Assembly: GCA_963817955.1 (NCBI GenBank)
Contig: CAWFQK010000004.1
Coordinates: 480,001 to 544,000 of the forward strand
Direction: 5' to 3'
Source of the DNA: an uncultured Gemmatimonadaceae bacterium
Lineage (GTDB): Bacteria; Gemmatimonadota; Gemmatimonadetes; Gemmatimonadales; Gemmatimonadaceae
DNA: 64,000 nt
The notes beneath the pieces are model-generated. The model was not told the origin of the DNA, ran no database searches, and saw only the letters and a list, made by a program, of their open reading frames with translations. The position numbers and the translations under genes are program-made. Within the stretch, counting starts at the first letter, position 1. Each line of letters opens with the position of its first letter. Of the stretch, positions 12,777-54,604 are shown piece by piece.

Positions 12777-14419
<1,643 letters not shown>

Positions 14420-14467
14420 GGTGCGAAATCCTCATTCAGAAAGTGAGAATTAGCGTTTGTGGATAGT

Positions 14468-14770
<303 letters not shown>

Positions 14771-14826
14771 ACGGTTTGCTCCTCCTTCTCTGTGGCTGCG
14801 GTAAAAAGAATGATTGGCTTGTGTTG

Positions 14827-14853
14827 TTAGCACTCAGCACACAAGAGTGCTAA
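14827..14853. promoter_or_regulatory. CIRCE element (HrcA operator)
   Basis: Perfect TTAGCACTC-N9-GAGTGCTAA upstream of groES. Confidence 0.97.
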
Positions 14854-14861
14854 CGACCCGC

Positions 14862-14890
14862 AGTCTACCCGGTTCCGACTCCCCAGTCAA
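14862..14890 (-). promoter_or_regulatory. Sigma70-type groESL promoter
   Basis: TTGACT-N17-TAGACT on the minus strand just upstream of CIRCE. Confidence 0.75.
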
Positions 14891-14937
14891 GCCGAGCGAG
14901 TGTACCGAATGAGGCTAAGTCATTCCTCCGCAAACGT

Positions 14938-15729
14938 TTAAGCAGGCCCAGGCTCTGGCCGAAGCAACGAATGCGCGATCTGCAGGCCCTGCAGCGTCAG
15001 ATGCGGCTCCACTCGGTCGAACGACCGGCACAACGTCGCCATCGTCTCGGCGAAGCCCCCCGTGGCGATCACCAATGGCACCTGCTCACGTGGCCAGCTC
15101 TCCTTGATCCGGCGCACGATGCCGTCGATCGCATCCGCGGCGCCAAACAGGACGCCTGCCCGAATGCAATCCTCCGTGCGCGTGCCAATCACCCGCGTGG
15201 GTACGGTGATCTCCGTCGCCGGCAGCTTCGAGGTGCGCCGCGTGAGCGTCTCCGCGGATGTCAGGACGCCTGGCGCGATCACGCCGCCGAGGAACACGCC
15301 GTCGGCGGTGATACAATCGAAGGTCATCGCCGTTCCCATGTCCACGACGATCGCGTCGCGGGCGAACAGGCGACTCGCGGCCAGTGTGTTGATCAGCCGG
15401 TCGGCGCCCACCGTGAGCGGCTCGTCGACCGCGAGGCGGATCGGCAACTCGGCACGGGCGTCCACCACCAGCGGCGTCCCAATGGCGAAGTACTGCTCAC
15501 ACGCGCTGCTCAACGGGCCCGTCACGCGAGGCACCACGGATCCGATCGCGACGCTCGTCACCGCGTCGGGCGTGAAGTCGCTCGCCGCCAACAGGGAGTG
15601 CAGCAGCACCCCGAATTCGTCCGGCGTGCGCGCGACGTCCGTCATGACCCGCCAGTGGCCGCGCAGCTCGGCCTCGCTGAACAGGCCAATCGTCAACTCG
15701 GTGTTTCCCACATCGAAGACGAGGATCAT
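14938..15729 (-). CDS. coaX: Type III pantothenate kinase
   Basis: MILVFDVGNT; VGADRLIN; VVDMGTAMTFD; GGVIAPG; IATGG. Confidence 0.93.
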   Translation of the reverse strand: MILVFDVGNTELTIGLFSEAELRGHWRVMTDVARTPDEFGVLLHSLLAASDFTPDAVTSVAIGSVVPRVTGPLSSACEQYFAIGTPLVVDARAELPIRLAVDEPLTVGADRLINTLAASRLFARDAIVVDMGTAMTFDCITADGVFLGGVIAPGVLTSAETLTRRTSKLPATEITVPTRVIGTRTEDCIRAGVLFGAADAIDGIVRRIKESWPREQVPLVIATGGFAETMATLCRSFDRVEPHLTLQGLQIAHSLLRPEPGPA

Positions 15730-16499
15730 GGCGCCTCCTTGTTGAGGACGAGAGAACCTGCGCGTACAACGACGTCGCCAGCAGCCGCGCGCACGCAGAG
15801 CGCGCCGCTCGCGTCGATTCCCTGCACGACGCCAACGACCGGCTCCACGCAGGCGCGCCCGCCCGCAAAATCCCGCGCGGCAAACTCGGCGAGCTCCACG
15901 TTTGACAACACCCCTGAACACAGCGCCGCTCGGCGGATCGCCGGTATGACCGCGTCGAGGAGGGCGAGACGCGCGACGCCCGAGCGTAACCCGATGGCAT
16001 TCGGCTCCCCCTCCGGCGCGCGAACATTGACGCCAACCCCAATCGCCACCCATTCCGGCAATCCATCACGCCACCGCGCCTCCACGAGCACCCCAGCGAG
16101 CTTGCGCCCGTCCGCATACACATCGTTTGGCCACTTGAGCCGCACAGCGCCATCGGCGAACGCGTCCAGCGCGGGGGCGAGCGCCAGCCCGACGCGCAGC
16201 GACAACACGTCCAGTGCAGCCAGGTCATTCGGACGCTCCACGAGCGTGAGCCAGACGCCAGCCCCCAACTCCGACCGCCACGATTTGCCCAATCGTCCAC
16301 GCCCGGCGCTCTGCCTGTCCGCCAGCACCAGCGTGCCCGCGGGAGCGCCTTCTGCAGCCAACAGGTGCGCCACGTCCAGCGTGGACCCAACAGTAGCGAA
16401 GGCGACGACCTTGGGCAGGCCGAGGCGTTGTTCGAGGTCGTCGCCGCGCAGCCCGTCGTAGCGGCCGGCGGCGCCGGCGTGATCAGCGGATGACGACAA
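15726..16499 (-). CDS. birA: Biotin--protein ligase
   Basis: GSTLD; QSAGRGRLGKSW; LKWPNDV..RKLAGVLVE..GVGVNV. Confidence 0.93.
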   Translation of the reverse strand: MSSSADHAGAAGRYDGLRGDDLEQRLGLPKVVAFATVGSTLDVAHLLAAEGAPAGTLVLADRQSAGRGRLGKSWRSELGAGVWLTLVERPNDLAALDVLSLRVGLALAPALDAFADGAVRLKWPNDVYADGRKLAGVLVEARWRDGLPEWVAIGVGVNVRAPEGEPNAIGLRSGVARLALLDAVIPAIRRAALCSGVLSNVELAEFAARDFAGGRACVEPVVGVVQGIDASGALCVRAAAGDVVVRAGSLVLNKEAP

Positions 16500-17247
16500 G
16501 ATAGAATGCGATCGCCAGCACGATGCGGTACCAGCCGAAGAGTGTGAAGTCCCGCGTCTTCAAGTACGCCAGGAACCACTTGATCGCGACGATGGCGGTG
16601 ATGAAACTGACGATGAATCCGATCGCCAGCGTACCGAAATGCCCTGACAGCCCGGAATATCCTTTGAGCAACTCGAGCGCACTCGCGGCCAGCATCGTCG
16701 GCACGGCGAGCATGAATGAGAATTCGACGATCGTGCGCTTGCTGATGCCAATGAGCGATCCGCCGACGATCGTTGCCGCGGACCGGGACACACCGGGCAC
16801 GATCGCGAGTGACTGGAACAAGCCAACGAGCAGCGCCTTCTTGTACGTGATCTCGCTGAAATCCGCTTCACGTTGCGAGTGATTCTTGAATCGCTCGAAG
16901 ATGAGCAGCGCGATCCCGCCGATGAGCAGCGTCCACAACACGACGTCGATGCTACCCAGCAAGTGCTTGATGACCTTGTAGAGCGCGAGTCCGATGATGC
17001 CGGTCGGAATGAACGCGACGACCAGCTTCTTGAGAATTTCCCAGTTCCAGAATTTGCTCCAGTACAGCACGACGACCGACAGGATGGCGCCCAGCTGAAT
17101 GATGATCTCAAAGCTCTTGACGAACTCGGACTCCGTCAGGTGCAGCGCGTCGGCCGACAGGATCAGGTGGGCGGTAGACGACACGGGCAGAAACTCCGTG
17201 ACGCCCTCGACGACACCAAGCAGGAGGGCGTGGCCGGCGTCGAGCAC
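16483..17247 (-). CDS. uppP: Undecaprenyl-diphosphate phosphatase
   Basis: GVVEGVTEFLPVSSTAHL; IQLGAILSV; PGVSRSAATI. Confidence 0.93.
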   Translation of the reverse strand: MLDAGHALLLGVVEGVTEFLPVSSTAHLILSADALHLTESEFVKSFEIIIQLGAILSVVVLYWSKFWNWEILKKLVVAFIPTGIIGLALYKVIKHLLGSIDVVLWTLLIGGIALLIFERFKNHSQREADFSEITYKKALLVGLFQSLAIVPGVSRSAATIVGGSLIGISKRTIVEFSFMLAVPTMLAASALELLKGYSGLSGHFGTLAIGFIVSFITAIVAIKWFLAYLKTRDFTLFGWYRIVLAIAFYLVVIR

Positions 17248-43789: not shown

Positions 43790-44146
43790 ATGTCAGTGAC
43801 TTGGCACTACAGACGACCGATCAACTTCCGCTCGACCTCGCTCGATGGCGGCGATGTCCAGTTCCCGCGTGCGGTTGCGGGTGAGGACTTCGACCGGTAT
43901 GCACGCGCGGTATGGCATCAAGGACAGCGATGGATCCGACGGCATTGGCCCCGGATCTACGGTCCAGACGTCACCATGCACGACGCGCGCGCCAGCTTGT
44001 GTGCGGTCGCGGCGATTGATGTCGTGCGGCGCTTGTATCCTCAAGAACAGCAGCTGCTGAGCGAACTGGTCTACCGTGCATGGACTGAAGCCGAGCGCGA
44101 TCTACGCGTGGAAACGATAGACGCCCATCTCGCGGCTGCGGGATGA
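43790..44146 (+). CDS. Hypothetical protein
   Basis: 118-aa ORF from ATG 43790 with a GAGG RBS, ending just before the tRNA. Confidence 0.6.
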   Translation: MSVTWHYRRPINFRSTSLDGGDVQFPRAVAGEDFDRYARAVWHQGQRWIRRHWPRIYGPDVTMHDARASLCAVAAIDVVRRLYPQEQQLLSELVYRAWTEAERDLRVETIDAHLAAAG

Positions 44147-44165
44147 GCGTCTATGGTCTGCGACA

Positions 44166-44252
44166 CGGATGAGGCGAGATTCGAACTCGCGAGCGGCTTG
44201 CGCCGCCACACGCTTTCCAGGCGTGCGCCTTAAACCACTCGGCCACCCATCC
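44166..44252 (-). tRNA. tRNA-Ser(GGA), intact copy
   Basis: GGATGGGTGGCCGAGTGGTTTAAGGCG-CACGC-CT-GGA-AA-GCGTG, long variable arm, GTTCGAATC, acceptor CTCATCC-G. Confidence 0.96.
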
Positions 44253-44266
44253 AACAGCCATCTAAC

Positions 44267-45517
44267 TTAGCCAGCCACAGCGACTTCTGACACCCTGTCG
44301 GGCGGTAATTCGGAATGCTGGTCGCGGTTCGCGGTCGCGGTTCGTGCTGCTTCCGCCTTTCGTGCCTCCCCGCGTCTAGCAAGCGCCGCCCGCAACGTGT
44401 CCTCGCGGGGTTTCTGGTACACCTCAACAATGGTCTTGTAGGAACTCCACCCACCGAGCGCCATGAGCTGCGCGGCAGGAAGGCCGTCGTTGTCGCTCGC
44501 AAACTTTCGCCGCAACGAATGCCAGCCCCTGCCCTTCACACGCGCGAGGCCGGCGCGTGTCTCCAGCTGCGTCCACCAGCGTTGGAACTGGCGCCGCGAA
44601 ATCGGTTCCTCTGGGTCGAGCGGCGACGGGAATACCCAGCCATCCCCGATTCGGGATTCTTCACGCCTCATTCGCTTGAGCGCATCAACGTGCTCCGGTA
44701 ACAGCGGCGTGCCGTGCTCTCGCTTCATCTTGTCCCACGCTCTACCCCAAACAATCCGGCCGGCGGATAGATCAACTTCGCTCCAACGCAACCGCGCGAC
44801 GGAGATTGAGCGATGGCCGGTCTCGTGTTCCAGATACAAATACAGTTCGACTTGCGGTCCCAGCGCCTTCGCCGCCACGCAGAGCGCATCATACTCGGCG
44901 TCGGTCGTCATCGGCTGACGCGGGCTCGACTCTACCGGAATCGGAAATTTCCGAAACGGATTGCGATCGAGCAGCGGCCGACCGTTGATACGGACCGTCT
45001 CCGCCCAGTTGCACACGGCCATGAGAAACTTTAGATCATAGCCGATCATGCGATCCCGCACGCCACCCTCCGTCTTTCGCCCGCTGGGCCTCAGGCGTCC
45101 GGCGCGTCGCTCGCTGATGAAACGGTCCCAATCCCGCCGGTCCAGATCAACGACGCGAGCGGATGTCCCCCAACACGACTCAAACAGGCCGCGCGCCGTG
45201 CGATCATGCCGAGCTTTCGCCGCCGTTTTTCGCGGCGTAACTTCGCGCAGGTAGTTGTCAAACAGCTCCTTCACGGTCAGCTCATCGCTGCGCGGCGCTT
45301 CCTCTTTGCGGAGTGCTGTCGCCAATTCCTCGGCGGCCAGCTTCCCGCGTTCGCGGTCGGCGTGGTGCAATGACCGACTGCGCCGCTTCCCGTCTTCGTC
45401 CTGATACTCCAACATCAACGTGCCGTCGCGCGGGTGCGGATACAGGCGTACTCGGTTGCAACCTTTCTCGCCTGTGATGAAGCTCCGTGCCCGCGTTGGC
45501 TTCCTCGAACGTGTCAC
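44267..45517 (-). CDS. Tyrosine recombinase (integrase)
   Basis: ETGHRSISVARLRWSEVD; K; WHSLRR; LGGW; EVY catalytic residues. Adjacent to the att repeat. Confidence 0.93.
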   Translation of the reverse strand: MTRSRKPTRARSFITGEKGCNRVRLYPHPRDGTLMLEYQDEDGKRRSRSLHHADRERGKLAAEELATALRKEEAPRSDELTVKELFDNYLREVTPRKTAAKARHDRTARGLFESCWGTSARVVDLDRRDWDRFISERRAGRLRPSGRKTEGGVRDRMIGYDLKFLMAVCNWAETVRINGRPLLDRNPFRKFPIPVESSPRQPMTTDAEYDALCVAAKALGPQVELYLYLEHETGHRSISVARLRWSEVDLSAGRIVWGRAWDKMKREHGTPLLPEHVDALKRMRREESRIGDGWVFPSPLDPEEPISRRQFQRWWTQLETRAGLARVKGRGWHSLRRKFASDNDGLPAAQLMALGGWSSYKTIVEVYQKPREDTLRAALARRGEARKAEAARTATANRDQHSELPPDRVSEVAVAG

Positions 45518-45927
45518 CGTGCGCCTCCTACGTGGCGGGTGATGACAGCTCGCGCGATCTCTGCGCGTTCAATGTGCAAGGCCGGCGCCGATGGAGGCAA
45601 GGCGGCGCCCGGCTTCTTCGGCAGATCGCTTCGACGCACGCGCGGCGCATTTCGACGGCCGGCGTTCGGAATCTTGCCGCGCGAAATCTCGCGTCCGAGA
45701 TGGTCAACGCTATAACCGCTCTCGGTCGCCGCCGCTGCGAGTGTCAGCAAGCCCCCTGCATTCCGGCGGAGCGCCTCGTCTAGTTCATTCGCCGCACTCT
45801 CCAGCGCAATGGCCGCGCCCTCCGCCGCCGCCCAGCGGCGGAGGGCGGCGGCTCGATTGCGCCACAAGCCGGCTAGTTCTTGTGTAGAGGGTTCAGCGTA
45901 CTGCGTCTGCTGAGGTTCGCGTTTCAC
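45514..45927 (-). CDS. Excisionase-like HTH protein
   Basis: LLTLAAAATESGYSVDHLGREISRGKIP..PRVRRSDL. Overlaps the integrase start (GTGA). Confidence 0.65.
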   Translation of the reverse strand: MKREPQQTQYAEPSTQELAGLWRNRAAALRRWAAAEGAAIALESAANELDEALRRNAGGLLTLAAAATESGYSVDHLGREISRGKIPNAGRRNAPRVRRSDLPKKPGAALPPSAPALHIERAEIARAVITRHVGGAR

Positions 45928-46033
45928 GATTCGTCATAGCTCTCCTCGTTCCGTTGAATGGTGCGCGTCGGCCACCGTGTCACCGACGCGCGTAAGAATT
46001 GACGTGCCTCGGTGGCACGGACACACTGGAAGC

Positions 46034-46282
46034 CTACAGCTCGTAGAGCCGTAGGTCATTCATGATGTCAAACAGACCATCGCGCACATCGGCTTCCGGC
46101 CCACCGGGGCTCTTCTGGATACGCTCATCGTGCCGCGTCGCACGTTCAATCACCTGTACCTCTTCCTCGGTAAGCGAGATGACCAGTTCGCCGCTGAAGA
46201 AGAGCCCCAGGGAATCGGCGTGTAGTCTGTCTAGTAACCGCATCCGACGTGTCGCCTCTGCGTACTTCCGGCGGGCGTGCAT
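46034..46282 (-). CDS. Hypothetical protein
   Basis: 82-aa ORF co-oriented between the primase and the Xis-like gene. Confidence 0.45.
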   Translation of the reverse strand: MHARRKYAEATRRMRLLDRLHADSLGLFFSGELVISLTEEEVQVIERATRHDERIQKSPGGPEADVRDGLFDIMNDLRLYEL

Positions 46283-46352
46283 CGAGGCACGGGGTTATGA
46301 TAGGACCGTGGAACCAATTGCCGGAGTGCAGGGGGCGCCGCTGCGATGACCA

Positions 46353-48779
46353 TCATACGAGATCCTCGATGCTCTCGGGGGCTTGTGCCGGTGGCACTTC
46401 CTTCCCGGCGCGATACTTGTCCCGATGCTCCACGACGTAACCGGCCCTCAGCGCAGCTTCGAGCGCGCGGGTTTGACGACTACGGTCCGTCTTCCCATCT
46501 CGGATGAACAGGCCCGGTTGCTGTGCGCGCATTTCGGTGAACAGTTCGCTCTTTGTTACGCCGTGCGTAGGGCTGGCGATTGAACGAATCGCGATACCGG
46601 CCGCGATAGCGCAGCGAGCGCCAATCGTCGCATCGTCCGCCAACACGGGGGCCACACCCTCTTTCAGCACGCCGGGCGCGACGAGATGCCACCGAAATTC
46701 CGTATCTGACTTGCCGCCTTTGTTCTTCTTCACGCGCATCGTAATGTTGTCGTCCTTCTTCAAGACGGTGGCCTCCCAGTCGAACGCTCCTTCAATGACA
46801 CTTGAGCCCCGAGCCCTGCCCGAGTCCGAGACCGCGGAGTGATGCACGACGAGCACGAAGGCGTTTGCCATTCGCGACAGCGACTGGAGCGTTGCCATTA
46901 CGACGCCCATCTCTTGCGCGTTGTTCTCCTCGCCGGTTGTCGCGCCCTTGAGCACATCCACCACCAGAGCGACCGGTTCAGGAGCACCACGCGCGCGAAG
47001 CTGTGCAAGGGTGTCGCGAAAATACGGGATCGCGCCAGCGATCGACGATAAGGCGGGGGCGCCGTCAATCACGAATACATCGGCGTCCTCGACGCCAAAT
47101 TCCTTGAGTTGGCGCGTGATGCGCTCGCGAAACCCGTCAACATCTTCCGTTGCGAAGCACACAACCGAGCCGGCTTTCATGACCGGGGAACCGGCAAAGC
47201 CGCGTGCGAGCGAGACCGCGCAGGCAAAGGCTGATACGATCCAGGACTTGCCGTTGCCCGGAGGACCAATGAGTCCCCCCACCCCGCGCCGAGGGAGCGC
47301 CCCGTCGATCAGCCATTCCCTCTGAACCGTCTTCGCATCGCCGGCCCGCCACAGCGACAGCGGCGCGGCGGTCGCTTCGCTGACAAGCATCTGAACGGGC
47401 GCCGCGAGCAACCACGCTGCTCGTCGGATGAGCCGCGCGTCGTCCTCCTTGAGCCCTTGTAGAATGCGCCCAAGCTGCGTGCTGAGCGCGACATCAAACA
47501 CCGATCGCTCTGATGCGTAGGGGGAGAGGCGAAGGATATGAAGCACCTCCGGGCGAAAGACGGGCGTGAGCGGATCGTGTTGCAGCGCCGCCTTGCTGAG
47601 AAGCTCCCATCTGTCCGCGACGCCCTGGCCGGAGAGGCGGCCAACCTCTGAAACGAACACCCGATCCGCGCTGCCGATGATTGCGGCTAGGCGCTCTCCT
47701 TCGGAGGCGCCCGCCGCCCAGCGCTCAGCTTCGGCATCGCGCGCCGTCTCGGCCGGAGGCGTGGCGCCCTCGACTACGGCGAACTCGTATTTCACGCTGT
47801 TGAAACCAAAGTCGCGAGCGAGATCTACCAGCCACGCCCAGCCGACTTGAAACGGCCCGTGAAGACTGCGCCAATCTGCCTCGACTGTGTCGGGCGGGTT
47901 CACGCCGCCCTCCCAGCGAGCGCACCACTCGTAAAACAGCTCGCGCCCCTCTTCCTCGTACTCGATCCCGGCGGCCGCCTTCACCGCATAGGCAAACGTG
48001 ATGTAGTCGGCGCGACCGGGGAACCGCGCTTCGCTATTCGGAATGCACCGGATACACTCTCTGAGGGCTTCCATGCGGGCCGCGCCTTCCCCTGGAGCGA
48101 GCAGCGCCGCTTGATCGGCGGCCGGCGCTGAGACTTGCCCGTTTCCTTCGCGATGCGTCGTGTAGCCCCGCGCCGCAAAGTCCGCCTCGGCCACATCGAG
48201 AAACTGGCTCGCCTGCTCCCGTGTTATCTCGGTGCCTGGCTGCGCAGTGGGGTCTTTGTCCCACTCATACGTTGCGCCGCTCGGATGTGTCCCGGCGATC
48301 AGGTACTGCTGCTTGTCGCCCAAGATCTCGACGAGATGCTTCTCACCCTCCCGCTCCGCGCATAGGCGCATCCGAGCGAACGGCTCTGTGGTGCGATACT
48401 GGAGCAGCCGTTTTGACGAGTTGGCGCGACCTCGCACCGGAGCGGGACCAAGTTGCGACAACGCCATCTGTTCGATGCGGTCGGCGATCACGGGGTCGTC
48501 GCTGTCGATGTCAACGCCCGGCCGGCGCGCAGCCTTGAGGCCCAGGTTAGCTCCGTCCTTTTCCCACTGCTCGACGTTCTCGCACGTGGCCTCGTGCGAC
48601 AGCCATTTATATCCGCCCCACGTACCGGAGCTGTTGCGCTGCCCCGGCGACTTGCCGCGTGCGTTCAGCGTGATTCTCGACTGCGGGGAGATCTCGCCGG
48701 TTGGCGGAATCACCGACACTAAGTCGGCGCCGTACGTGTCGAAGCTGCGCATGAAAAACGATTGCGTTTCCTCCTGCAT
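46353..48779 (-). CDS. Primase-polymerase / PriCT / RecA-type (AAA_25-like) helicase fusion
   Basis: N-terminal GKSP..NLGL..GVDIDSD..GTHPSGATYEW. Central FYEWCARW..W.SL. Walker A GPPGNGKS, ALVVD, VLVVHHS, RARGSS. Confidence 0.85.
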   Translation of the reverse strand: MQEETQSFFMRSFDTYGADLVSVIPPTGEISPQSRITLNARGKSPGQRNSSGTWGGYKWLSHEATCENVEQWEKDGANLGLKAARRPGVDIDSDDPVIADRIEQMALSQLGPAPVRGRANSSKRLLQYRTTEPFARMRLCAEREGEKHLVEILGDKQQYLIAGTHPSGATYEWDKDPTAQPGTEITREQASQFLDVAEADFAARGYTTHREGNGQVSAPAADQAALLAPGEGAARMEALRECIRCIPNSEARFPGRADYITFAYAVKAAAGIEYEEEGRELFYEWCARWEGGVNPPDTVEADWRSLHGPFQVGWAWLVDLARDFGFNSVKYEFAVVEGATPPAETARDAEAERWAAGASEGERLAAIIGSADRVFVSEVGRLSGQGVADRWELLSKAALQHDPLTPVFRPEVLHILRLSPYASERSVFDVALSTQLGRILQGLKEDDARLIRRAAWLLAAPVQMLVSEATAAPLSLWRAGDAKTVQREWLIDGALPRRGVGGLIGPPGNGKSWIVSAFACAVSLARGFAGSPVMKAGSVVCFATEDVDGFRERITRQLKEFGVEDADVFVIDGAPALSSIAGAIPYFRDTLAQLRARGAPEPVALVVDVLKGATTGEENNAQEMGVVMATLQSLSRMANAFVLVVHHSAVSDSGRARGSSVIEGAFDWEATVLKKDDNITMRVKKNKGGKSDTEFRWHLVAPGVLKEGVAPVLADDATIGARCAIAAGIAIRSIASPTHGVTKSELFTEMRAQQPGLFIRDGKTDRSRQTRALEAALRAGYVVEHRDKYRAGKEVPPAQAPESIEDLV

Positions 48780-49061
48780 TTGAGTATATTTACATCACTA
48801 TCCCGTATAGCTCCCCGGTCTCAGCTCCCGTGTTCGCGCGCGGTCGCTAGGACCGGGGAGCTTTGGTTGTGTGAGATCGACAGAGCCGAAATGATGGCCG
48901 AAGGTTCGGCCGTGGTCACTGCGTGGCGTACGCGCCGGTAAAGGCTTGCGGTCGTGGCGTTCTAACGTGTTCGCACGCGTGGCCCCTAGCTGCCCCGTAG
49001 AGCCGCGATCGGCACCGGAGTAGCAAAGGAGTGCGAGATGAGCCCCCGCGTGCGTTGTGGG

Positions 49062-49331
49062 CTACGCCTGGGGGCTCTGACTCGGACGTGCCAAGCCTGC
49101 GGCGGAGGTTCCCGCTGGCTGCTTGGCACGTTCGTTCTCCACTCGTTCGATTTCAGTGCGTTGGGCGTAGGCCCGGACATTCGCTTCGTCAAGGAGCCAG
49201 CGGTCGGTGATTTGACGCGCGGGGCCGAGGGCGCCGCGCAGAGCGAGGCGACGCACGGTGTACCAAGGCAAGCCAAGCAAGGTGGCAGCCTGTGGTAGTG
49301 TGATTTCGGTTTTCACTGCGGGGGGTCTCAA
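49062..49331 (-). CDS. Small HTH (AlpA/MerR-like) DNA-binding protein
   Basis: ITLPQAATLLGLPWYTVRRLALRGAL..RWLLDEANV. Confidence 0.65.
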   Translation of the reverse strand: MRPPAVKTEITLPQAATLLGLPWYTVRRLALRGALGPARQITDRWLLDEANVRAYAQRTEIERVENERAKQPAGTSAAGLARPSQSPQA

Positions 49332-49428
49332 GTCCTTCCCTGATGGCGCCTCGCTATTGGGCGCCGAGCTGGCGATGCGGGTCTCATGTACCGACCGTGC
49401 AGAAATCGCCGCGATTTATCGACCCCTA

Positions 49429-49457
49429 AATATACACCGTTCGGAGTAAAAGGTCAA
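49429..49457 (-). promoter_or_regulatory. Sigma70-type promoter for the HTH-primase operon
   Basis: TTGACC-N17-TATATT on the minus strand. Confidence 0.6.
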
Positions 49458-49513
49458 CAAAGAACTATCGGCGCTGCTCTCTCCTGCATCTGCATTCAGG
49501 ACGTGGCATTCGG

Positions 49514-49706
49514 GTCGCCACTGTCGCGTCGTCGCAACCCTACTACGTAAGGGTTTGCAACACGGCGACAAAGACAGTTTGTCGCAAGACTGTCGCAAGG
49601 TTCTGTCGCTTGCAACAAACCATACAGGACAACGACTTAGCCCCTCCATCGAACAGCGCTGCGACAACCTTTGCGACATGTCGCAAGCTCTGTCGCAACG
49701 TGTCGC
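49514..49706. repeat. Cluster of ~12 (T)GTCGC(AA) motifs in both orientations (putative iterons/ori)
   Basis: TGTCGCAA at 49580, 49591, 49679 and 49691. Inverted TGCGACA at 49660 and 49672. Palindrome TTGCGACATGTCGCAA at 49671-49686. Confidence 0.75.
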
Positions 49707-49812
49707 GGGCCGCGCGCGCCGAACACCCCGGAAACGACGGCGCCGCGCAGAGCGATTCCCTGAGCGCGGCGCGCTATGCGCCCGCGCGCGCGAGGCGCGC
49801 CGCCCGATCCGA

Positions 49813-50526
49813 CTACTGAACCCAGCCGCCGGCATTGAGGCGCGCCAGAAGCCGCCCAACCTGCGCGGCGCTCCACCTGCCCCCTCGCGGCGCGCCGATG
49901 CACCGATCATTCAACGCGCGAGCGATGGCACGAAACGAAGTGACCCCCGAGGCGCGTAGCTCGGCGATGGTCAGCCCGAAGGCATCCGCATGTTCAGCCG
50001 CGTTGGCCGCTCGGACCTTGGCGCTCTCCGCCGCGCCCCGTCTCGCCGCCGCTCGGCTGATTCGTTCAGGGTGCCCGCCAAGCGGCGCCTTCCCGGCTTT
50101 GCGCCGCTTCTCTCTTACGACGGCGAGAGCCGCCTTTGTGCGCTCAGCAACCAAACGCCGTTCATGCTGCGCGACAGCCGCGAAGATGTGAACGGTAAGT
50201 TCGTTGGCCTCTGGCATATCAGCCACAACGAACTTCACACCTTGCGCTTGAAGGTTGATAAGGAAGCGCAAGTCTCGCGACAACCGGTCGAGCTTTGAGA
50301 CGACGAGGCGAGCGCCGTACATCCGGCAAGCAGCCAACGCCTTCCTCAGCTCCGGCCGCGTGTTGTTGCCGCCGCTCTCCACCTCCGTATACTCCGCGCG
50401 AAGCTCCCAGCGCCCGCCGTTGAGATAGTCGAGTACCGCGTTTCGCTGCGCCTCCAGGCCGTTGCCTGACCGGCCTTGTCGAGCCGTGGAAACGCGAAAA
50501 TACGCCACAAAGGCACCGTTTGGCAT
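49813..50526 (-). CDS. Serine recombinase (resolvase/invertase family)
   Basis: VAYFRVSTARQG.SG.GLEAQ; EVESG; RPEL; VSKLDRLSRD; AQHERRLVAERTKAAL. Confidence 0.92.
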   Translation of the reverse strand: MPNGAFVAYFRVSTARQGRSGNGLEAQRNAVLDYLNGGRWELRAEYTEVESGGNNTRPELRKALAACRMYGARLVVSKLDRLSRDLRFLINLQAQGVKFVVADMPEANELTVHIFAAVAQHERRLVAERTKAALAVVREKRRKAGKAPLGGHPERISRAAARRGAAESAKVRAANAAEHADAFGLTIAELRASGVTSFRAIARALNDRCIGAPRGGRWSAAQVGRLLARLNAGGWVQ

Positions 50527-50719
50527 CGAAGGTAGCCGTCGTTGTGAGGGTGACACATAAGGCCCGTTTTTCGTCGGGCCTATTGTTACACGCGTTCGGG
50601 GATTACACAAGAGACATCTTCGGGCGCAGGTCCGCCGCAGGCGGACAACGATGCGTCGGCATTTCGATTTCTTGGATGGCGACAGGGGCAATGCCGAACG
50701 CGTCTACAGCCGGGGATGC

Positions 50720-50915
50720 TCTCGCTCACCGCGCGGGCCAACTCCGGCCGCGCATCGTTCCCGCCGCTCTCGACCTCTGTGAACGAAGCTCAGAGATCCC
50801 AGCGCCCACCATTCAGATAGTCGAGAACAGCCGCCTGCTGGGCTTCGAGGCCCAGCCCTGAGCGGCCCTGGCGCGCGGTCGATACCCGGAAGTACGCCAC
50901 AAATGCGCAAGTTGC
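50720..50915 (-). pseudogene. Truncated paralogue of the serine recombinase 5' end
   Basis: AFVAYFRVSTARQGRSGLGLEAQQAAVLDYLNGGRWDL*ASFTEVESGGNDARPEL, near-identical to the N-terminus of the adjacent gene, with an internal stop. Confidence 0.85.
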
Positions 50916-51121
50916 CAGGACAAGGCAGGATAGGAACAAGGCAAGGCTAGGCTAAGGCAGGGAGAGCCTCCCCCCCCTTTGCCCAGGAACGCCCGGCCCG
51001 CTGCCGTAGCCGGGAGGTAAGTGACCGGCCCGGGGCTCTGGCCAGAGACTCCCCTCCGGACATTGAGAAGAGCCCGTCGAAATTTTTTCGCCTATTGAAT
51101 CGAAAAAGCTTCGGTCGTCCG

Positions 51122-51349
51122 TCAGCGGCGCGCCCGGCGCCGCGCACTCGGTACGCGCTCGATTAGTTCGCCCGGCTCCACGCAGAATAGCTCGCAGAGC
51201 TTTTCCAGGGTTATGGTGTCGATGCGTTGCACCGGATCACCCTTCGCTAACCGATACGCAGCGGGAACGGTTAGCCCCGACTCGCTCGCGAGTCGATACG
51301 CTGTCCACCCGCGCTTGTGCAACAGCTCTGGAATGCGCCACCGAATCAT
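51122..51349 (-). CDS. Cro/C1-type HTH repressor
   Basis: IRWRIPELLHKRGWTAYRLASESGLTVPAAYRL..IDTITLEKLCELFCVEPGELIE. Confidence 0.88.
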   Translation of the reverse strand: MIRWRIPELLHKRGWTAYRLASESGLTVPAAYRLAKGDPVQRIDTITLEKLCELFCVEPGELIERVPSARRRARR

Positions 51350-51396
51350 TTGCGTTTCTCCCTGTGTCCGCACCCGCAACTTGACCTATTCGTCAA

Positions 51397-51450
51397 GTAA
51401 CGCTAGCGGTACTAACCGCTGTTGACAAGTCATTACGCTAGCGTTACTGT
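51397..51450. promoter_or_regulatory. Two palindromic operators and a rightward promoter
   Basis: GTAACGCTAGCGGTAC (51397-51412) and ATTACGCTAGCGTTAC (51432-51447). TTGACA(51422)-N17-TACTGT(51445). Confidence 0.7.
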
Positions 51451-51499
51451 CGGTGCAGCCCGCGTGGGCTCGGATCTACTCACAATCGGAGCGTTGACT

Positions 51500-51661
51500 A
51501 TGGTCAAGACCAAGAGCGGCACGACCCCTCGTACTATTCGTGTCCGCACCCGCACCGTCGATGTTCTGTTTGTCTATAGCAAGGCGCCTGGTGGGCTCAC
51601 ACCCGATGAGGCGACGCGCCTCGGGCTCGCACTCATCGCCATTTCCGACGAAGCCGACTGA
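51500..51661 (+). CDS. Small hypothetical protein divergent from the repressor
   Basis: MVKTKSGTTPR.. with GGAG upstream, directly after the predicted promoter. Confidence 0.45.
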   Translation: MVKTKSGTTPRTIRVRTRTVDVLFVYSKAPGGLTPDEATRLGLALIAISDEAD

Positions 51662-51915
51662 GTACGGCCCTGCCGGATGCGCCACGAATTGCCCGTTTGC
51701 TCTCCAGCAAGCGGGCAATTCTCGTTTCGTGGTTCGGCGACGACGCAAACTCTCATGGCGAAATCGCGCGCAATGTGCTATATTTAGGGACACCAAATTA
51801 GTATTTGGTTTTGCATTCCTGCTCCGGCGAAACAACCCGCCGTTGAGCCTAAGGCCCCGGCGCAGAAGGTCCACCCGCCGCCGCGCGCCCCACCGGAAGT
51901 CCTCGGAAACGCTCT

Positions 51916-52116
51916 ATGAAAACAGACCCGCTCGCCGGCTACCTCACGCTGCGCGACATCACGCCACTCGTCGGCTCGTACTTCACCGCGTACAGTCTCG
52001 CCGCCGCCGGCCAATTCGGACCGCCGGTCATAGTCGGACGAACGCAGTTCTTTTCCCAGCGCACCGCTGAACGCGCAATCGAGAAGCGGACCGCCGCGAA
52101 AGTGGCCGGCCGCTGA
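51916..52116 (+). CDS. Small putative DNA-binding protein
   Basis: YLTLRDI..GPPVIVGRTQFF..AERAIE. Overlaps the next ORF (TGATG). Confidence 0.55.
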   Translation: MKTDPLAGYLTLRDITPLVGSYFTAYSLAAAGQFGPPVIVGRTQFFSQRTAERAIEKRTAAKVAGR

Positions 52117-52328
52117 TGAGTCTCCTCATCGACAAAATCATGCTACGCGAGTACCTCCGCATCGGCACGAGACAAGCGCTCGGACCGGAGGGCACGCCGC
52201 TCCAGTACCTCGCCGTGCTCGCGCATGAATGGCAGTGCTCCATCCCCGCTGCGGTGGAACGCCTCACGGCGCAACTTCATCGTGATATGTCAACTCTCCC
52301 GGGGGAGCAATCACCGGAGGTAGAGTGA
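52116..52328 (+). CDS. Hypothetical protein
   Basis: 70-aa ORF translationally coupled on both sides. Confidence 0.5.
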   Translation: MSLLIDKIMLREYLRIGTRQALGPEGTPLQYLAVLAHEWQCSIPAAVERLTAQLHRDMSTLPGEQSPEVE

Positions 52329-52852
52329 TGGCCGGCAAACCAAAAGAAGCTCGTCTACTCGCGGCGCTTGAGAAACGCGCGGTACGGGAACTCGGCGACG
52401 GCGCGACGCCGCTCGACTTCGTTTGCGACTACATCAGCGGCGGCAAGACGTTTATTGATCTCGCCGGGGAGCTAGCAACGGAACTGGGCGAGTCGGTCTC
52501 ACGTCAGTTCATCTCTGGCACGGCGAACGCGCTCGCCCCCGATGCGAAGGCCCGCATTACCGTTGCACGACAAGAAGGTGCTATGGCGCTCGCAGAGGAT
52601 ACGCTGTCAATCGCCGACGATGCCGAGCCCACAGCGGGCGGAGCGGCAAAGGCCCGCGTACAAATCGGTTCAAGGCAATGGCTGGCCGAGCGATTCAACT
52701 CCGCGCAGTTCGGCGGAATGAAGGGACAGGTCAACGTTTCATTCGGCGCCCTGATGCTTGAGGCGCTGCGCCAGCCGCCACCGATAAGGCCAGTCGTTGA
52801 GAACGTTCCTCTTCTTTTGACGGGTACGACCGAAGATGCTGGCCCGGCATAA
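52328..52852 (+). CDS. terS: Terminase small subunit (Sf6-like)
   Basis: VCDYISGGKT..ARQEGAMALAEDTLSIADD..ARVQIGSRQWLAERFNSAQFG matches the Sf6-type TerS pattern. GGAGG RBS. Confidence 0.75.
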   Translation: MAGKPKEARLLAALEKRAVRELGDGATPLDFVCDYISGGKTFIDLAGELATELGESVSRQFISGTANALAPDAKARITVARQEGAMALAEDTLSIADDAEPTAGGAAKARVQIGSRQWLAERFNSAQFGGMKGQVNVSFGALMLEALRQPPPIRPVVENVPLLLTGTTEDAGPA

Positions 52853-53036
52853 GCCACGGCGAGGCGTAGCAGGCCCCAGCACCGCGTAGGAGCGAACGAA
52901 GGCCGCTGCTGAGGGAAAGACCCTTGGCAGCGGCCTTCGTTCGCCGCGTGCGCTACCCGGCCCACGGCTTTCACTACATCCCCGTTTCCTGACGGTCTGC
53001 GTCTGGCCGCTCCGGGAGTGACCCGGACGCGCCGCT

Positions 53037-53423
53037 CTACTGCTTGCAGCTCGGATCACGGAAGCGAACAACCGTCCCCGAGAGCACAGCGCGGTGGTCC
53101 ACGTCAACACCTCCGTTCACGCCAGGGCTCACGCCCTCAATCGTCTGCTCCGACGCAACCCGGATGACCGCATCGCCGCCGAGTTCGCGCGCGCTACTCC
53201 GCATAGCGTCTGCGAGATCATCTGGTTTCGTCCAAAACGTGCGGGGGCGAACACTCACGAGACCGACTTCATCGAACGCGCACCGGGGAAGCTGCGCATT
53301 GTAAAGCGTTACGGGAGCGTCAGCCGGCCGCGCATCTGCCGCTGTGGGTGCAAGCCGCGTCACGCGCACAGCCGGGGCGCACGCCACGGCCAACAGTAAC
53401 AATCCGAACACGCGTAGACGCAT
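53037..53423 (-). CDS. Lipoprotein cargo (YbjQ/DUF4156-like fold)
   Basis: Lipobox LLAVAC; FDEVGLV..MRSSARELGGDAVI..SGTVVRF. Confidence 0.65.
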   Translation of the reverse strand: MRLRVFGLLLLAVACAPAVRVTRLAPTAADARPADAPVTLYNAQLPRCAFDEVGLVSVRPRTFWTKPDDLADAMRSSARELGGDAVIRVASEQTIEGVSPGVNGGVDVDHRAVLSGTVVRFRDPSCKQ

Positions 53424-53683
53424 TGTCGCTCCAGTCAATGTCAGAGTTGTTGGATCACTCATCCCGAACTCAGACGAACGTACGAAGACCAACGCAACCG
53501 GCAGTGGACTGCGACACGAGAAGTTGCGGTATCTTGGCGTCTTTCCGCGACGCGGCCTTAGTGGCGCCGCGTCTTGCCACGCCAGGGGCCTTCCCGTCGC
53601 GGCCTTCACACCCCCGCGCAGGATGATTACGACGCGGCACAATGGGAAGTAGCTGGGGCTGCGCAGACCGGTCGGAACGACAA

Positions 53684-53723
53684 AGCCCGCTTGCTCAGGT
53701 GAGGTTCACCTTGGCAAGCGGGC
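53684..53723. terminator. Hairpin near the right att site
   Basis: AGCCCGCTTGC..AGGTGA-GGT-TCACCT..GCAAGCGGGCT. Confidence 0.6.
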
Positions 53724-53862
53724 TGTGTAGGTCTTGGTCGCAGTTGTGGTCGCGGTTCGTTCAGGAAAGGCCCGGCATCGAGCAACAAAGGTCCGTCAGA
53801 TCGCGCGAGCTGTCAGAGTGAAAACCGACAACTTGCCGGACTTTGCTACCCCAGTCCATTCA

Positions 53863-53902
53863 CTTTCCAGGCGTGCGCCTTAAACCACTCGGCCACCCAT
53901 CC
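53863..53902 (-). repeat. att repeat: orphan 5' half of tRNA-Ser(GGA)
   Basis: 40 bp identical to 44213-44252. Identity stops just past the anticodon loop. Confidence 0.95.
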
Positions 53903-53991
53903 TTGAAGGGTCGTTCCTACCTTCCCACAAACTGCAACCGGCGCGATCGGCTCTGACATGCCGCCGCGCCGGTTGGCCATACACATCGAGG

Positions 53992-54081
53992 CGGACAGGG
54001 AGAGATTCGAACTCTCGATACCGGGTTCACCGGTATGCCGGTTTTCGAGACCGGTGCCTTCAACCGCTCGGCCACCTGTCC
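53992..54081 (-). tRNA. tRNA-Ser(CGA)
   Basis: GGACAGGTGGCCGAGCGGTTGAAGGCA-CCGGT-CT-CGA-AA-ACCGG, long variable arm, GTTCGAATC, acceptor CCTGTCC-G. Confidence 0.96.
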
Positions 54082-54094
54082 GAGGCAGCCAACA

Positions 54095-54123
54095 AGATTA
54101 GGCCGTAGATGCTGATGTGTCAA
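54095..54123 (-). promoter_or_regulatory. Promoter of the tRNA-Ser pair
   Basis: TTGACA-N17-TAATCT, 13 bp upstream of tRNA-Ser(CGA). Confidence 0.8.
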
Positions 54124-54604
54124 CGATTTGACGTCGCGCACGAAAGAAGCGCGTCAACATCTCGGCCGATTCGTCACTGCGCACGCCGGCAAGCACCTCG
54201 GGACGATGATTGAGACGCGGGTGGCGCAACAGGTCGGTGACCGACCCCGCCATGCCCGCTTTATCGTCCCATGCGCCGAACACTACCCGTGCGACGCGTG
54301 ACAACACGATCGCCCCGGCGCACATGGCACACGGCTCGAGCGTGATATACACCGTGCAGTCGTCGAGTCGCCAGGCTCCGAGCGCGGCCGCAGCGGCGCG
54401 GATCACCAGCGCCTCGGCGTGTGCGGTTGGATCGTGATCACGGACCGTGCGATTGCCGGCGCGCGCCAACACCTCGCCGTTGCGCACCATCACGGCTCCC
54501 ACCGGCACTTCAGCCGCCGCTTCCGCCGCGCGCGCTTCTGCGAGCGCGAGACTCATCCAGCGATCATCGTCGGGGCGAGGAATCATCCCTCGAATATCAC
54601 CCAC
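54098..54604 (-). CDS. tadA: tRNA adenosine(34) deaminase
   Basis: EVPVGAV; DPTAHAE; TLEPCAMCAGA. Confidence 0.93.
   Translation of the reverse strand: MGDIRGMIPRPDDDRWMSLALAEARAAEAAAEVPVGAVMVRNGEVLARAGNRTVRDHDPTAHAEALVIRAAAAALGAWRLDDCTVYITLEPCAMCAGAIVLSRVARVVFGAWDDKAGMAGSVTDLLRHPRLNHRPEVLAGVRSDESAEMLTRFFRARRQIVDTSASTA

Follow-up and report, generated by a model that had tools for sequence, protein, structure and literature searches.

The carriage of the 3' part of the gene by elements that target tRNA genes is usually explained by the host promoter being kept in this way. Islands bearing a 5' fragment form a small class in the Islander collection, with 159 of 3919 islands versus 3760 bearing a 3' fragment (PMC4383910). 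The same arrangement is found in temperate pelagiphages. For HTVC028P, integration at tRNA-Asn with an attP core of 40 bp was verified by PCR (PMC8477408), and HTVC021P, HTVC109P and HTVC120P are further temperate pelagiphages of this kind (bioRxiv 10.1101/410191). In the available text of these two sources, attP is placed just past int, its core is identical to the host tRNA gene's 5' end, and the 5' part brought by the phage completes the split gene. Integrases specific for dusA, as far as the available text of PMC4482086 describes them, likewise insert within a host gene's 5' end but differ in having a protein-coding target and in belonging to another integrase family. The mirror-image layout is rare, yet it is already catalogued as a minority class (PMC4383910, PMC8477408; available text). 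For this minority, which brings the 5' part, the promoter problem has to be solved by the elements themselves; how this is done is not addressed in the available text of PMC4383910, PMC8477408 or bioRxiv 10.1101/410191; in the text of the last of these, the pelagiphage preprint, the word "promoter" occurs 0 times. A limited literature search returned no study testing the transcription of the regenerated tRNA in the 5'-fragment class.

The locus described here lies in a window of 64 kb (the whole stretch of DNA that was analysed) and consists of a 9.65-kb mobile element situated inside the front half of tRNA-Ser(GGA) rather than the usual rear half (Table 1). A repeat search found the element bracketed by a 47-nt direct repeat (44206-44252 and 53856-53902, 94% identity, spacing 9650 nt), the exact portion of which is 40 nt and corresponds to tRNA positions 1 to 40, starting at the 5' end and finishing one base past the anticodon loop CTGGAAA. 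The sequence-only reading, which had described the att repeat as a 40-bp tRNA 5' half extending up to the anticodon loop, was therefore correct on this point. When all 9 contigs were searched with tRNA-Ser(GGA) (blastn-short), only two matching places were obtained, the intact gene and the 5' fragment. The fragment lies 87 nt past tRNA-Ser(CGA) and 9.65 kb upstream of the intact gene on the same strand. It occupies the native place after tRNA-Ser(CGA), behind a hairpin that relatives also have there; the corresponding hairpin was found after tRNA-Ser(CGA) in eight related loci. The order that had been proposed for this end, in which TTGACA-N17-TAATCT leads through tRNA-Ser(CGA) into a dead 5' fragment at 53902-53863, was reproduced by reading the sequence, and the strong hairpin proposed beyond it at 53684-53723 proved to be real on folding. 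At the other end, the int stop codon TAA (44269-44267) is 13 nt before the tRNA start called by ARAGORN and 14 nt before G1, so that the complete gene does lie 9.6 kb away and 14 bp past the integrase stop, as had been claimed, and all coordinates hold.

Table 1. Features of the tRNA-Ser(GGA) element and its flanks (window coordinates)
Feature	Position	Strand	Evidence
Native terminator-like hairpin after tRNA-Ser(GGA)	44110-44155	-	-35.3 kcal/mol, z -6.47
Intact tRNA-Ser(GGA); attR identity block, positions 1-40 (44213-44252)	44165-44253	-	ARAGORN and repeat search
Element-borne promoter candidate, GTGTCA (44293-44288)-N18-TAAGTT (44269-44264)	44264-44293	-	Sequence reading, cross-locus alignment, within-genome comparison
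Tyrosine integrase of 416 aa, in the same orientation as the tRNA; last ~30 codons span P' arm and promoter-like block	44267-45517	-	PF00589, E 2.1e-15
Tandem pair of GAACCGCGACC at a 13-nt interval in the int tail; arm-type site candidates of the P' arm	44320-44343	-	Exact copies
HTH_17-like small protein, candidate excisionase; 4-nt overlap with int start	45514-45927	-	Below-cut-off Pfam match, E 0.0037
Primase-helicase (PriCT_2 and AAA_25)	46353-48779	-	Pfam and PHROG matches
Resolvase/DNA-invertase-type serine recombinase	49813-50691	-	PF00239, E 2e-26; phrog_125
Repressor-like small ORF, weak match	51122-51379	-	phrog_3, E 5.7e-5
Small-terminase-like gene	52325-52852	+	PF20901, E 5.8e-9; phrog_1482, E 5.2e-10; homologue in related element L053
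Strong hairpin followed by TTTGTCGTT; terminator-like	53684-53723	-	-35.1 kcal/mol, z -6.55, 0/200 shuffles as good
Candidate arm-type site for the integrase in the P arm, GAACCGCGACC; core about 105 nt away	53748-53758	-	Exact copy
Terminator-like hairpin and T run, just within the element	53825-53839	-	Terminator scan
attL identity block, displaced dead tRNA-Ser(GGA) 5' fragment, positions 1-40	53863-53902	-	40/40 identical to intact gene
GC-rich native hairpin in the spacer of the two tRNA genes, with TTGCAGTTTGT after it; terminator or processing structure	53936-53974	-	Fold z -1.97
tRNA-Ser(CGA), leading gene of ancestral CGA->GGA tandem	53990-54081	-	ARAGORN; tandem present in relatives
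Native promoter-like TTGACA (54123-54118)-N17-TAATCT (54100-54095), 13 nt before tRNA-Ser(CGA)	54095-54123	-	Sequence reading

This geometry is that of the Islander 5'-fragment class: an intact tDNA and a cognate 5' end fragment, upstream and in the same orientation, bracket an island of 9650 nt (the Islander limits being 2-200 kb) that contains a tyrosine integrase, and the anticodon is at the centre of the att site (PMC4383910). The crossover site thus appears anticodon-centred, with the points of strand exchange themselves predicted. In the available text of PMC4383910 the class is counted only and "promoter" is found nowhere, whereas here the integrase clade, its classical sisters and a candidate promoter at the int end are described. 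Unlike the pelagiphages, which are full SAR11 podoviruses, the present element has 9.65 kb, no structural genes and a Gemmatimonadota-type genome as its host, and its likeness to them is one of layout. Base composition was not distinctive, with a GC content of 0.60-0.65 for the element versus 0.63-0.65 for the genome.

The gene content was examined by scanning 20 ORFs against Pfam and PHROG. Six gave either a PHROG match (int, primase-helicase, resolvase, repressor-like and TerS-like genes) or a below-cut-off Pfam match (HTH_17), and 14 of the 20 were without any match; no capsid, portal, large-terminase or tail family was matched. The TerS-like matches extend over about 60 residues only. The element is therefore a small island with an integrase and its own primase/replication gene, lacking structural and large-terminase genes, and because of this gene content alone it resembles a phage satellite of the PICI or P4-like kind. 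It may accordingly have the biology of a satellite; a search of viral contigs for a helper phage yielded one marginal match of 24 residues only.

The host gene interrupted by the element appears to be the sole one of its kind. The 9 contigs (genome 94% complete) gave 51 tRNA calls, only one of which was Ser(GGA), which agrees with the dependence on this copy that the sequence-only reading had assumed. The codons concerned, UCC (15.9%) and UCU (3.3%), together make up 19% of serine codons in 617 long ORFs. A second "tRNA-Ser(cga)", called by ARAGORN on contig 2, was rejected as it looks spurious, its sequence having no visible likeness to the real gene. The CGA->GGA tandem was present in 6 of 11 related loci and in 3 further loci, often with a spacing of 59-117 nt. 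The empty tandem that the sequence-only reading had proposed to look for in relatives was found, and the 3' flank of the empty-site relative (G006) matches that of the intact tRNA-Ser(GGA). As judged from these loci, the tandem was shown to be the ancestral layout. In tandem relatives with a short spacer, the native sequence upstream of the tRNA is not the one found here at 44254-44300, in keeping with the earlier claim.

The integrase alone, used as a query, found no relative among the genome contigs, and an alignment-based search was required. The catalytic residues R236, H333, R336 and Y367 (Arg, His-x-x-Arg, Tyr) were invariant in an alignment of 24 homologues, and the protein is predicted to be active at the att sites. 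Of 9 related loci tested for the HTH_17-like gene, 8 had a homologue directly upstream of int. Of the 29 homologue loci in the order, 21 had a tRNA next to the 3' end of int, convergent in every case; in 159 further loci, a co-oriented Ser(GGA) gene was found only in the two whose integrases are the closest with DNA context (64-65% identity). In a tree of 80 rows, the three co-oriented rows formed a single clade (SH-aLRT 97) nested in a clade of nine rows (SH-aLRT 100), the remaining six of which were classical. The classical anticodon-loop integrases (L220 and L221 at tRNA-Ser(GGA), L153 at tRNA-Ile(GAT)) share 39-46% identity with the present one and also have an HTH_17-like gene directly upstream. 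These classical elements use the same tRNA (L220 and L221) and the same anticodon-loop crossover segment, but their int genes are convergent with the target tRNA, the part that they carry begins at position ~31 and reaches the 3' end, and the host promoter stays put. The identity blocks of L220 and L221 begin at position 31 and continue to the 3' end, and their overlap with positions 1-40 is confined to GCCTGGAAAG; by this comparison, the crossover sublocation in the anticodon loop was shown to be common to the co-oriented clade and its classical 3'-part relatives. Inversion of a classical element between two anticodon loops was considered as a source of the layout and rejected, as it would put the reverse complement of a 3' part beside int and not a true 5' part.

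In the survey of integrase homologues suggested by the sequence-only reading, the layout recurs in the two closest loci, and the 5' fragment itself was seen in this genome only. Locus L053 is interrupted by a contig end 6 kb upstream of int, and L133 is merely 2.5 kb long. The assembled contigs of the L053 genome held no 5' fragment, the four matches being two full genes, the CGA gene and one 3' fragment. The long CGA-GGA spacers of five other loci, L213 and L215 included, likewise contained none, giving only chance-level matches of 7-9 nt. Contigs of several relatives do break at tRNA-Ser(GGA), as would be expected if a mis-join at the repeated tRNA part had made the int->tRNA junction. Such an assembly artefact is nevertheless extremely improbable, as both junctions lie inside one contig of 1.71 Mb and the int->tRNA junction together with the conserved block recurs in two independent assemblies.

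We propose, with a probability of roughly 0.7, that this is a tRNA-Ser(GGA) element with a mirror-image attP, in which its own promoter and 5' part become joined to the host 3' part. Crossover would occur in the anticodon loop, as in the classical relatives, but with an attP in mirror image, which would comprise tRNA positions 1-40 beside the int 3' end, in the same orientation and with a tRNA-type promoter in front. Because of this, the host 5' part and the upstream tRNA-Ser(CGA) promoter would be left stranded at the far end (attL), and at attR the promoter and 5' part of the element would be fused to the host 3' part. Since the element sits in the front half of the tRNA, it apparently must supply the promoter of the gene itself. 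The only Ser(GGA) tRNA of the cell would now most likely be transcribed from the TAAGTT box that overlaps the int stop codon.

The assignment of this box as a -10 element is supported by the following data. Its first three bases are the TAA of the int stop, and it ends 11 nt before G1. A TAnnTT motif ending 7-14 nt upstream was found for 14 of the 51 tRNA genes of the genome, tRNA-Ser(GGA) among them, versus 0.003 expected per gene; the promoter-like site of tRNA-Ser(CGA) has the TTGACn / TAnn(T/C)T form also seen upstream of other tRNA genes of the genome. The T, A, T and T of the box were invariant in 11 aligned upstream regions of related loci. In two of these, int survives only as its final 23-48 codons. 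This conservation is at the DNA level, because in L053 the block lies past the int stop. The GTGTCA-N18-TAAGTT candidate of the sequence-only reading (44293-44264) thus stands as given and gains in likelihood from the form, place and invariance of its -10 box. The candidate -35 is poor, being either GTGTCA with an 18-nt spacer or TGTCAG with one of 17 nt, and varying among the 11 loci, whereas 10 of the 13 other TAnnTT-bearing tRNA genes carry TTG at 16-18 nt. A consensus promoter scan gave 0 sites in 44000-46400 and around both tRNAs; this was not counted against the candidate because the scan also misses the native tRNA-Ser(CGA) site.

The best-conserved stretch was not a hexamer but AAGTCGCTG, within the spacer between them, and its conservation is as compatible with a protein-binding site in attP as with a promoter. 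Along with the weak and variable -35, this is what might be seen if the geometry were as proposed but the tRNA were made solely as the 3' tail of an int or xis-int transcript and released by RNase P and 3' processing, the conserved block being a site in the P' arm of attP for Int, Xis or a host factor. No terminator-like site was found in the 14 nt between the int stop and the tRNA, so any read-through from int would add tRNA transcript, and candidate arm-type repeats lie 67-90 nt upstream. Three exact copies of the repeat GAACCGCGACC occur in the 64 kb, all of them at one or other end of the element; if up to 1 mismatch is allowed there are 6 copies, a number reached by 29 of 100 shuffles and so not above chance. 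The 13-nt tandem repeat has a match in L133 and a more degenerate version in L213 and L215. Exclusive read-through is unlikely, however, since TAnnTT at such a distance marks 13 other tRNA genes of the genome, and since the tRNA and the block persist in L213 and L215 although the int gene is gone. There, int is reduced to its last 48 and 23 codons before the tRNA (E 4.85e-17 and 6.5e-7, respectively). Read-through cannot serve in L213 (genome G017), because int is lost and there is one Ser(GGA) match only. The two loci are 89-92% identical across part of the spacer and may therefore reflect one decay event, not two.

The element-borne promoter was also weighed against a native origin of the block. 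Ser(GGA) genes that stand alone beside a PadR-like gene (L218, L137 and L007) have positions -45 to -1 in common with the element, and their upstream regions contain neither an int tail nor arm repeats. The block could on this account be the native Ser(GGA) promoter of the lineage, with L213, L215, L218 and L137 representing native layouts instead of remnants, the element having copied promoter and 5' part, and no selection having acted because of the element. Against this, L213 encodes, right before the tRNA, a stretch of 48 residues with 77% identity to the C terminus of integrase P0009, accompanied by the degenerate 13-nt tandem repeat; this is DNA of the element and not of the host. A native origin is accordingly regarded as improbable, and would concern where the block came from, leaving unaltered what the tRNA of this genome now depends on. 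With the element-borne promoter as the preferred reading, the earlier suggestion that coupling to the tRNA selects against decay of the int end fits the terminal 70-150 bp or so, as L213 and L215 keep 23-48 codons, but not int as a whole.

These results add detail to a known class and open no new one. The locus is a clean test case for the promoter problem, with an intact integrase, exact att blocks and a tRNA gene in single copy whose product reads 19% of serine codons, together with a promoter candidate over the int stop. The same tRNA also has classical sister elements for comparison, and in decayed relatives just the int end is retained. We suggest, tentatively and at slightly less than even odds, that the cell's sole tRNA for UCC and UCU has come under a promoter in the last codons of int, and that the int end may be kept as a permanent tRNA promoter after the element has decayed. 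Mirror-image islands would then be a route for the durable replacement of host tRNA promoters, and one integrase lineage could switch from a classical to a mirrored attP at the same tRNA and crossover site.

The sequence-only reading held that the insertion between the two serine tRNA genes duplicates the 5' half of tRNA-Ser(GGA) and that the intact gene is now transcribed from the element. Every coordinate behind this claim proved correct on reading and folding the sequence, the promoter-like motifs and the hairpin included, and the features are collected in the table.

Features of the element, of the two flanking tRNA genes (the only ones in the window) and of their surroundings (window positions)
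Feature	Position	Strand	Remark
tRNA-Ser(GGA), intact	44165-44253	-	ARAGORN
tRNA-Ser(CGA)	53990-54081	-	ARAGORN
int ORF	44267-45517	-	tyrosine integrase, PF00589 E 2.1e-15; same direction as tRNA
int TAA stop	44269-44267	-	14 nt upstream of tRNA G1
GTGTCA-N18-TAAGTT	44293-44264		candidate promoter in int 3' end
TTGACA-N17-TAATCT			promoter-like, 13 nt upstream of tRNA-Ser(CGA)
Direct repeat	44206-44252 / 53856-53902		47 nt, 94% identity, 9650 nt apart (repeat search)
Displaced 5' fragment	53863-53902		
Hairpin	53684-53723		z -6.55
GC-rich hairpin	53936-53974		directly 3' of tRNA-Ser(CGA)
Repeat at resolvase gene	50347-50525 / 50739-50917		direct, 179 nt, 73% identity; inside and just upstream of the gene
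tRNA-adenosine-deaminase-type gene	54098-54604	-	MafB19-deam / dCMP_cyt_deam_1 domains; directly upstream of tRNA-Ser(CGA) promoter
Lower-GC segment	41000-44000		GC 0.58-0.60 vs 0.63-0.65 around; 3' side of tRNA-Ser(GGA)

The exact portion of the direct repeat, read in both copies, is 40 nt and corresponds to tRNA-Ser(GGA) positions 1-40; it begins at the 5' end and stops one base after the anticodon loop CTGGAAA, as had been described. Beyond this block the intact gene continues with CGTGTGG and the upstream copy with TGAATGG. When all 9 contigs of the source genome were searched with tRNA-Ser(GGA) by blastn-short, just these two places matched, and no tRNA 3' fragment was found. The short distance claimed between the integrase stop and the intact gene was likewise borne out.

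The order CGA to GGA was found as a tandem in relatives of the same genus and order, at 6 of 11 scanned loci and at 3 more in a further scan; at the remaining loci Ser(GGA) stood by itself or was partial, often at a contig end. The gaps were 59, 73, 77, 84 and 117 nt in the short-spacer genomes and 165, 189, 545 and 650 nt elsewhere. The GC-rich hairpin recurs directly 3' of tRNA-Ser(CGA) in most tandem loci, and one relative (G006) also matches the window downstream of tRNA-Ser(GGA) (74% over 204 nt) and thus represents an empty site. From the ancestral tandem, the recurring hairpin and the G006 flank it was deduced that the 5' fragment occupies the native place, that the complete gene beside int is a composite, and that the 9.65 kb between them is an insertion. 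As to other copies, a single Ser(GGA) gene was called by ARAGORN among 51 tRNA calls over the 9 contigs of this 94% complete genome; UCC and UCU account for 15.9% and 3.3% of serine codon use in 617 long ORFs. A second tRNA-Ser(CGA) call on contig 2 (237169-237258) does not visibly resemble the real gene, lacks a promoter-like upstream region and is probably false.

Among the 20 ORFs of the element that were scanned, 14 had no match. The ORFs with matches were the integrase, a primase-helicase (PriCT_2 + AAA_25), a resolvase/invertase, a small-terminase-like ORF, a repressor-like ORF (weak) and, below cut-off, an HTH_17-like ORF that overlaps the start of int; capsid, portal, large-terminase and tail families gave no match in these 20 ORFs. 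With a primase-helicase and a TerS-like gene and without structural families, the element resembles a phage satellite in gene content. Of 9 related loci tested, 8 carry the int-HTH module and two the TerS-like gene. The base composition of the element was not distinct from the rest of the genome. The 179-nt repeat may be a partial duplication of the resolvase gene 5' region. GAACCGCGACC occurs in three exact copies in the 64 kb, two in tandem within the int tail, 67-90 nt upstream of the tRNA, and the third about 105 nt inside the opposite element end. This placement suggests candidate arm-type (integrase-binding) sites; with one mismatch allowed the count was not above chance, being equalled in 29 of 100 shuffles.

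Homologues of the integrase (39-50% identity) are common in the order, occurring in 96 of 401 genomes at E <= 1e-20. A tRNA adjoined the int 3' end in 21 of 29 fetched loci (Ile(GAT) 15, Ser(GGA) 5, Lys(CTT) 1), and in all 21 it was convergent with int, the classical layout in which the element carries the tRNA 3' part. A second survey, of genome and metagenome contigs, added 159 loci: 34 had convergent Ile(GAT), 3 convergent Ser(GGA), and 114 no tRNA within 600 nt (7 of these with less than 150 nt of room). Co-oriented Ser(GGA) was found in two, the closest relatives L053 (65%) and L133 (64%), and the other six held one each of convergent Arg(CCT), Ala(TGC) and Arg(CCG) and co-oriented Ile(GAT), Leu(CAA) and Arg(CCT). 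An 80-row tree was built from all 55 distinct near-full-length tRNA-labelled integrases and 25 drawn at random from 100 unlabelled ones; the other 75 were omitted. A single clade (SH-aLRT 97) holds the three co-oriented Ser(GGA) rows and is nested in a 9-row clade (SH-aLRT 100) whose other six members are classical (four Ile(GAT), two Ser(GGA)), so a single switch of layout would suffice. The proposed survey of homologues for the 5'-half duplication recovered the co-oriented layout in L053 and L133, but the displaced 5' fragment is visible only in the window genome; the L053 assembly shows none, the L053 contig reaches just 6 kb upstream of int, and the L133 locus is only 2.5 kb long.

Other arrangements were seen at related loci. 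The MAG holding L053 (G426) has two tRNA-Ser(GGA) genes differing by paired, compensatory variable-arm changes; one adjoins the co-oriented integrase, and the other (L219) is separated from the preceding tRNA-Ser(CGA) by 790 nt and followed, at 3.6 kb, by a 3' fragment. In G004, an integrase 50% identical to that of the window (L048, contig 426) lies beside a bare tRNA-Ser(GGA) 3' fragment rather than the full gene, and another contig (L009) starts inside int-tail-like sequence just before the full tRNA, which points to several elements at the same tRNA, separated by breaks in the assembly. In L223 (G391, 12864-17100), 4.06 kb separates tRNA-Ser(CGA) from tRNA-Ser(GGA), with a classical integrase on the 3' side. 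Of two closely related Longimicrobiales-clade integrases (L068, L078), both about 100 nt away from a tRNA-Arg(CCT), one is co-oriented with it and the other convergent; most of that clade has no tRNA nearby.

In the classical Ser(GGA) relatives the duplicate, 58-59 nt long and 100% identical, begins at position 31 and reaches the 3' end; it lies 6.0 kb away in L221 and 8.3 kb away in L220. A classical element at Ile(GAT) has a duplicate of positions 30-74. The only sequence common to the classical blocks and the mirrored block (1-40) is GCCTGGAAAG, made up of the anticodon loop with two flanking bases on one side and a single base on the other. Judged from this overlap, strand exchange must fall within GCCTGGAAAG in both kinds, and the element is deduced to be the mirror image of the classical anticodon-loop type. 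In a Longimicrobiales MAG (L110:11171-20339), tRNA-Ala(TGC) positions 1-40 occur in two further copies upstream of the gene, at 4.8 and 9.1 kb (100% and 97.5% identity). The cassettes that these copies flank carry acyltransferase and AMP-binding enzyme genes and ZnuA / ABC-3 transporter genes, gave no integrase Pfam match, and look like stacked integrase-less islands of the mirrored class.

The native promoter now leads into the dead 5' fragment, followed by two terminator-like hairpins, and plus-strand genes lie in between; for these reasons, transcription of tRNA-Ser(GGA) from it across 9.6 kb appears unlikely. Two sources within the element would remain, as had been proposed. The first would be read-through from int, a candidate because the terminator scan found no terminator-like site between int and the tRNA. 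The second would be a putative promoter within the int 3' end, which gained support from the tRNA promoters of the genome, from conservation and from decayed relatives. A TAnnTT ending 7-14 nt upstream was found for 14 of 51 tRNA genes in the genome vs 0.003 expected per gene; Ser(GGA) is among the 14 by virtue of the TAAGTT in the element, and 10 of the other 13 have TTG at 16-18 nt upstream. Eleven upstream regions were aligned: three with intact int, two int-tail remnants (L213, L215), L009 (contig start inside the int-tail/arm-repeat region), two with long CGA-GGA spacers and three beside a PadR-like gene. Throughout the alignment the box keeps its T, A, T and T and stands at a constant distance from the tRNA. 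In L053 the conserved block sits past the int stop codon, so conservation is at the DNA level and not that of the protein. As to whether relatives would show it as native upstream sequence, the short-spacer tandem loci were without the block.

In L213 and L215 the integrase is lost except for its last 48 and 23 codons, respectively, directly before the tRNA (tblastn vs integrase P0009: 77% identity, E 4.85e-17, and 83%, E 6.5e-7), and a degenerate tandem 13-nt repeat remains visible. On this evidence int read-through cannot supply the tRNA in these two loci. Three points speak against the promoter: the decay of these two loci may have been one event, parts of the spacer being 89-92% identical; the candidate -35 is poor and variable; and the best-conserved bases are located between the hexamers, where a site for a recombination protein would fit as well. 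The origin of the block can be read in two ways. At stand-alone Ser(GGA) genes beside a PadR-like gene (L218, L137, L007), about 45 nt upstream of the tRNA are common with the element and there is no int tail; either the element once copied a native promoter along with the 5' part, or these loci are older remnants.

The observation is therefore confirmed, and supply of tRNA-Ser(GGA) from the element, by int read-through or an int 3'-end promoter, is supported as far as sequence can test. The mirrored 5'-fragment layout is of a kind already catalogued and is not new: in the Islander paper (PMC4383910, Table 1), 3760 islands have a 3' tDNA fragment and 159 a 5' fragment (total 3919). Among pelagiphages, HTVC028P has a 40-bp core downstream of int, identical to the tRNA-Asn 5' end, and its integration was verified by PCR (PMC8477408); it thus shares with the element a 40-nt tRNA 5'-end core just past int. 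In several further pelagiphages, described in a preprint (bioRxiv 10.1101/410191), the phage brings the 5' part that restores the split gene. The word 'promoter' is absent from both the Islander paper and this preprint, and our literature search found no paper testing how a regenerated tRNA is transcribed. What is noteworthy here is the change from classical to mirrored layout, phylogenetically clean and with tRNA and crossover site unchanged, a candidate -10 box whose first three bases are the int stop codon, and the retention of the int end alone by decayed relatives.
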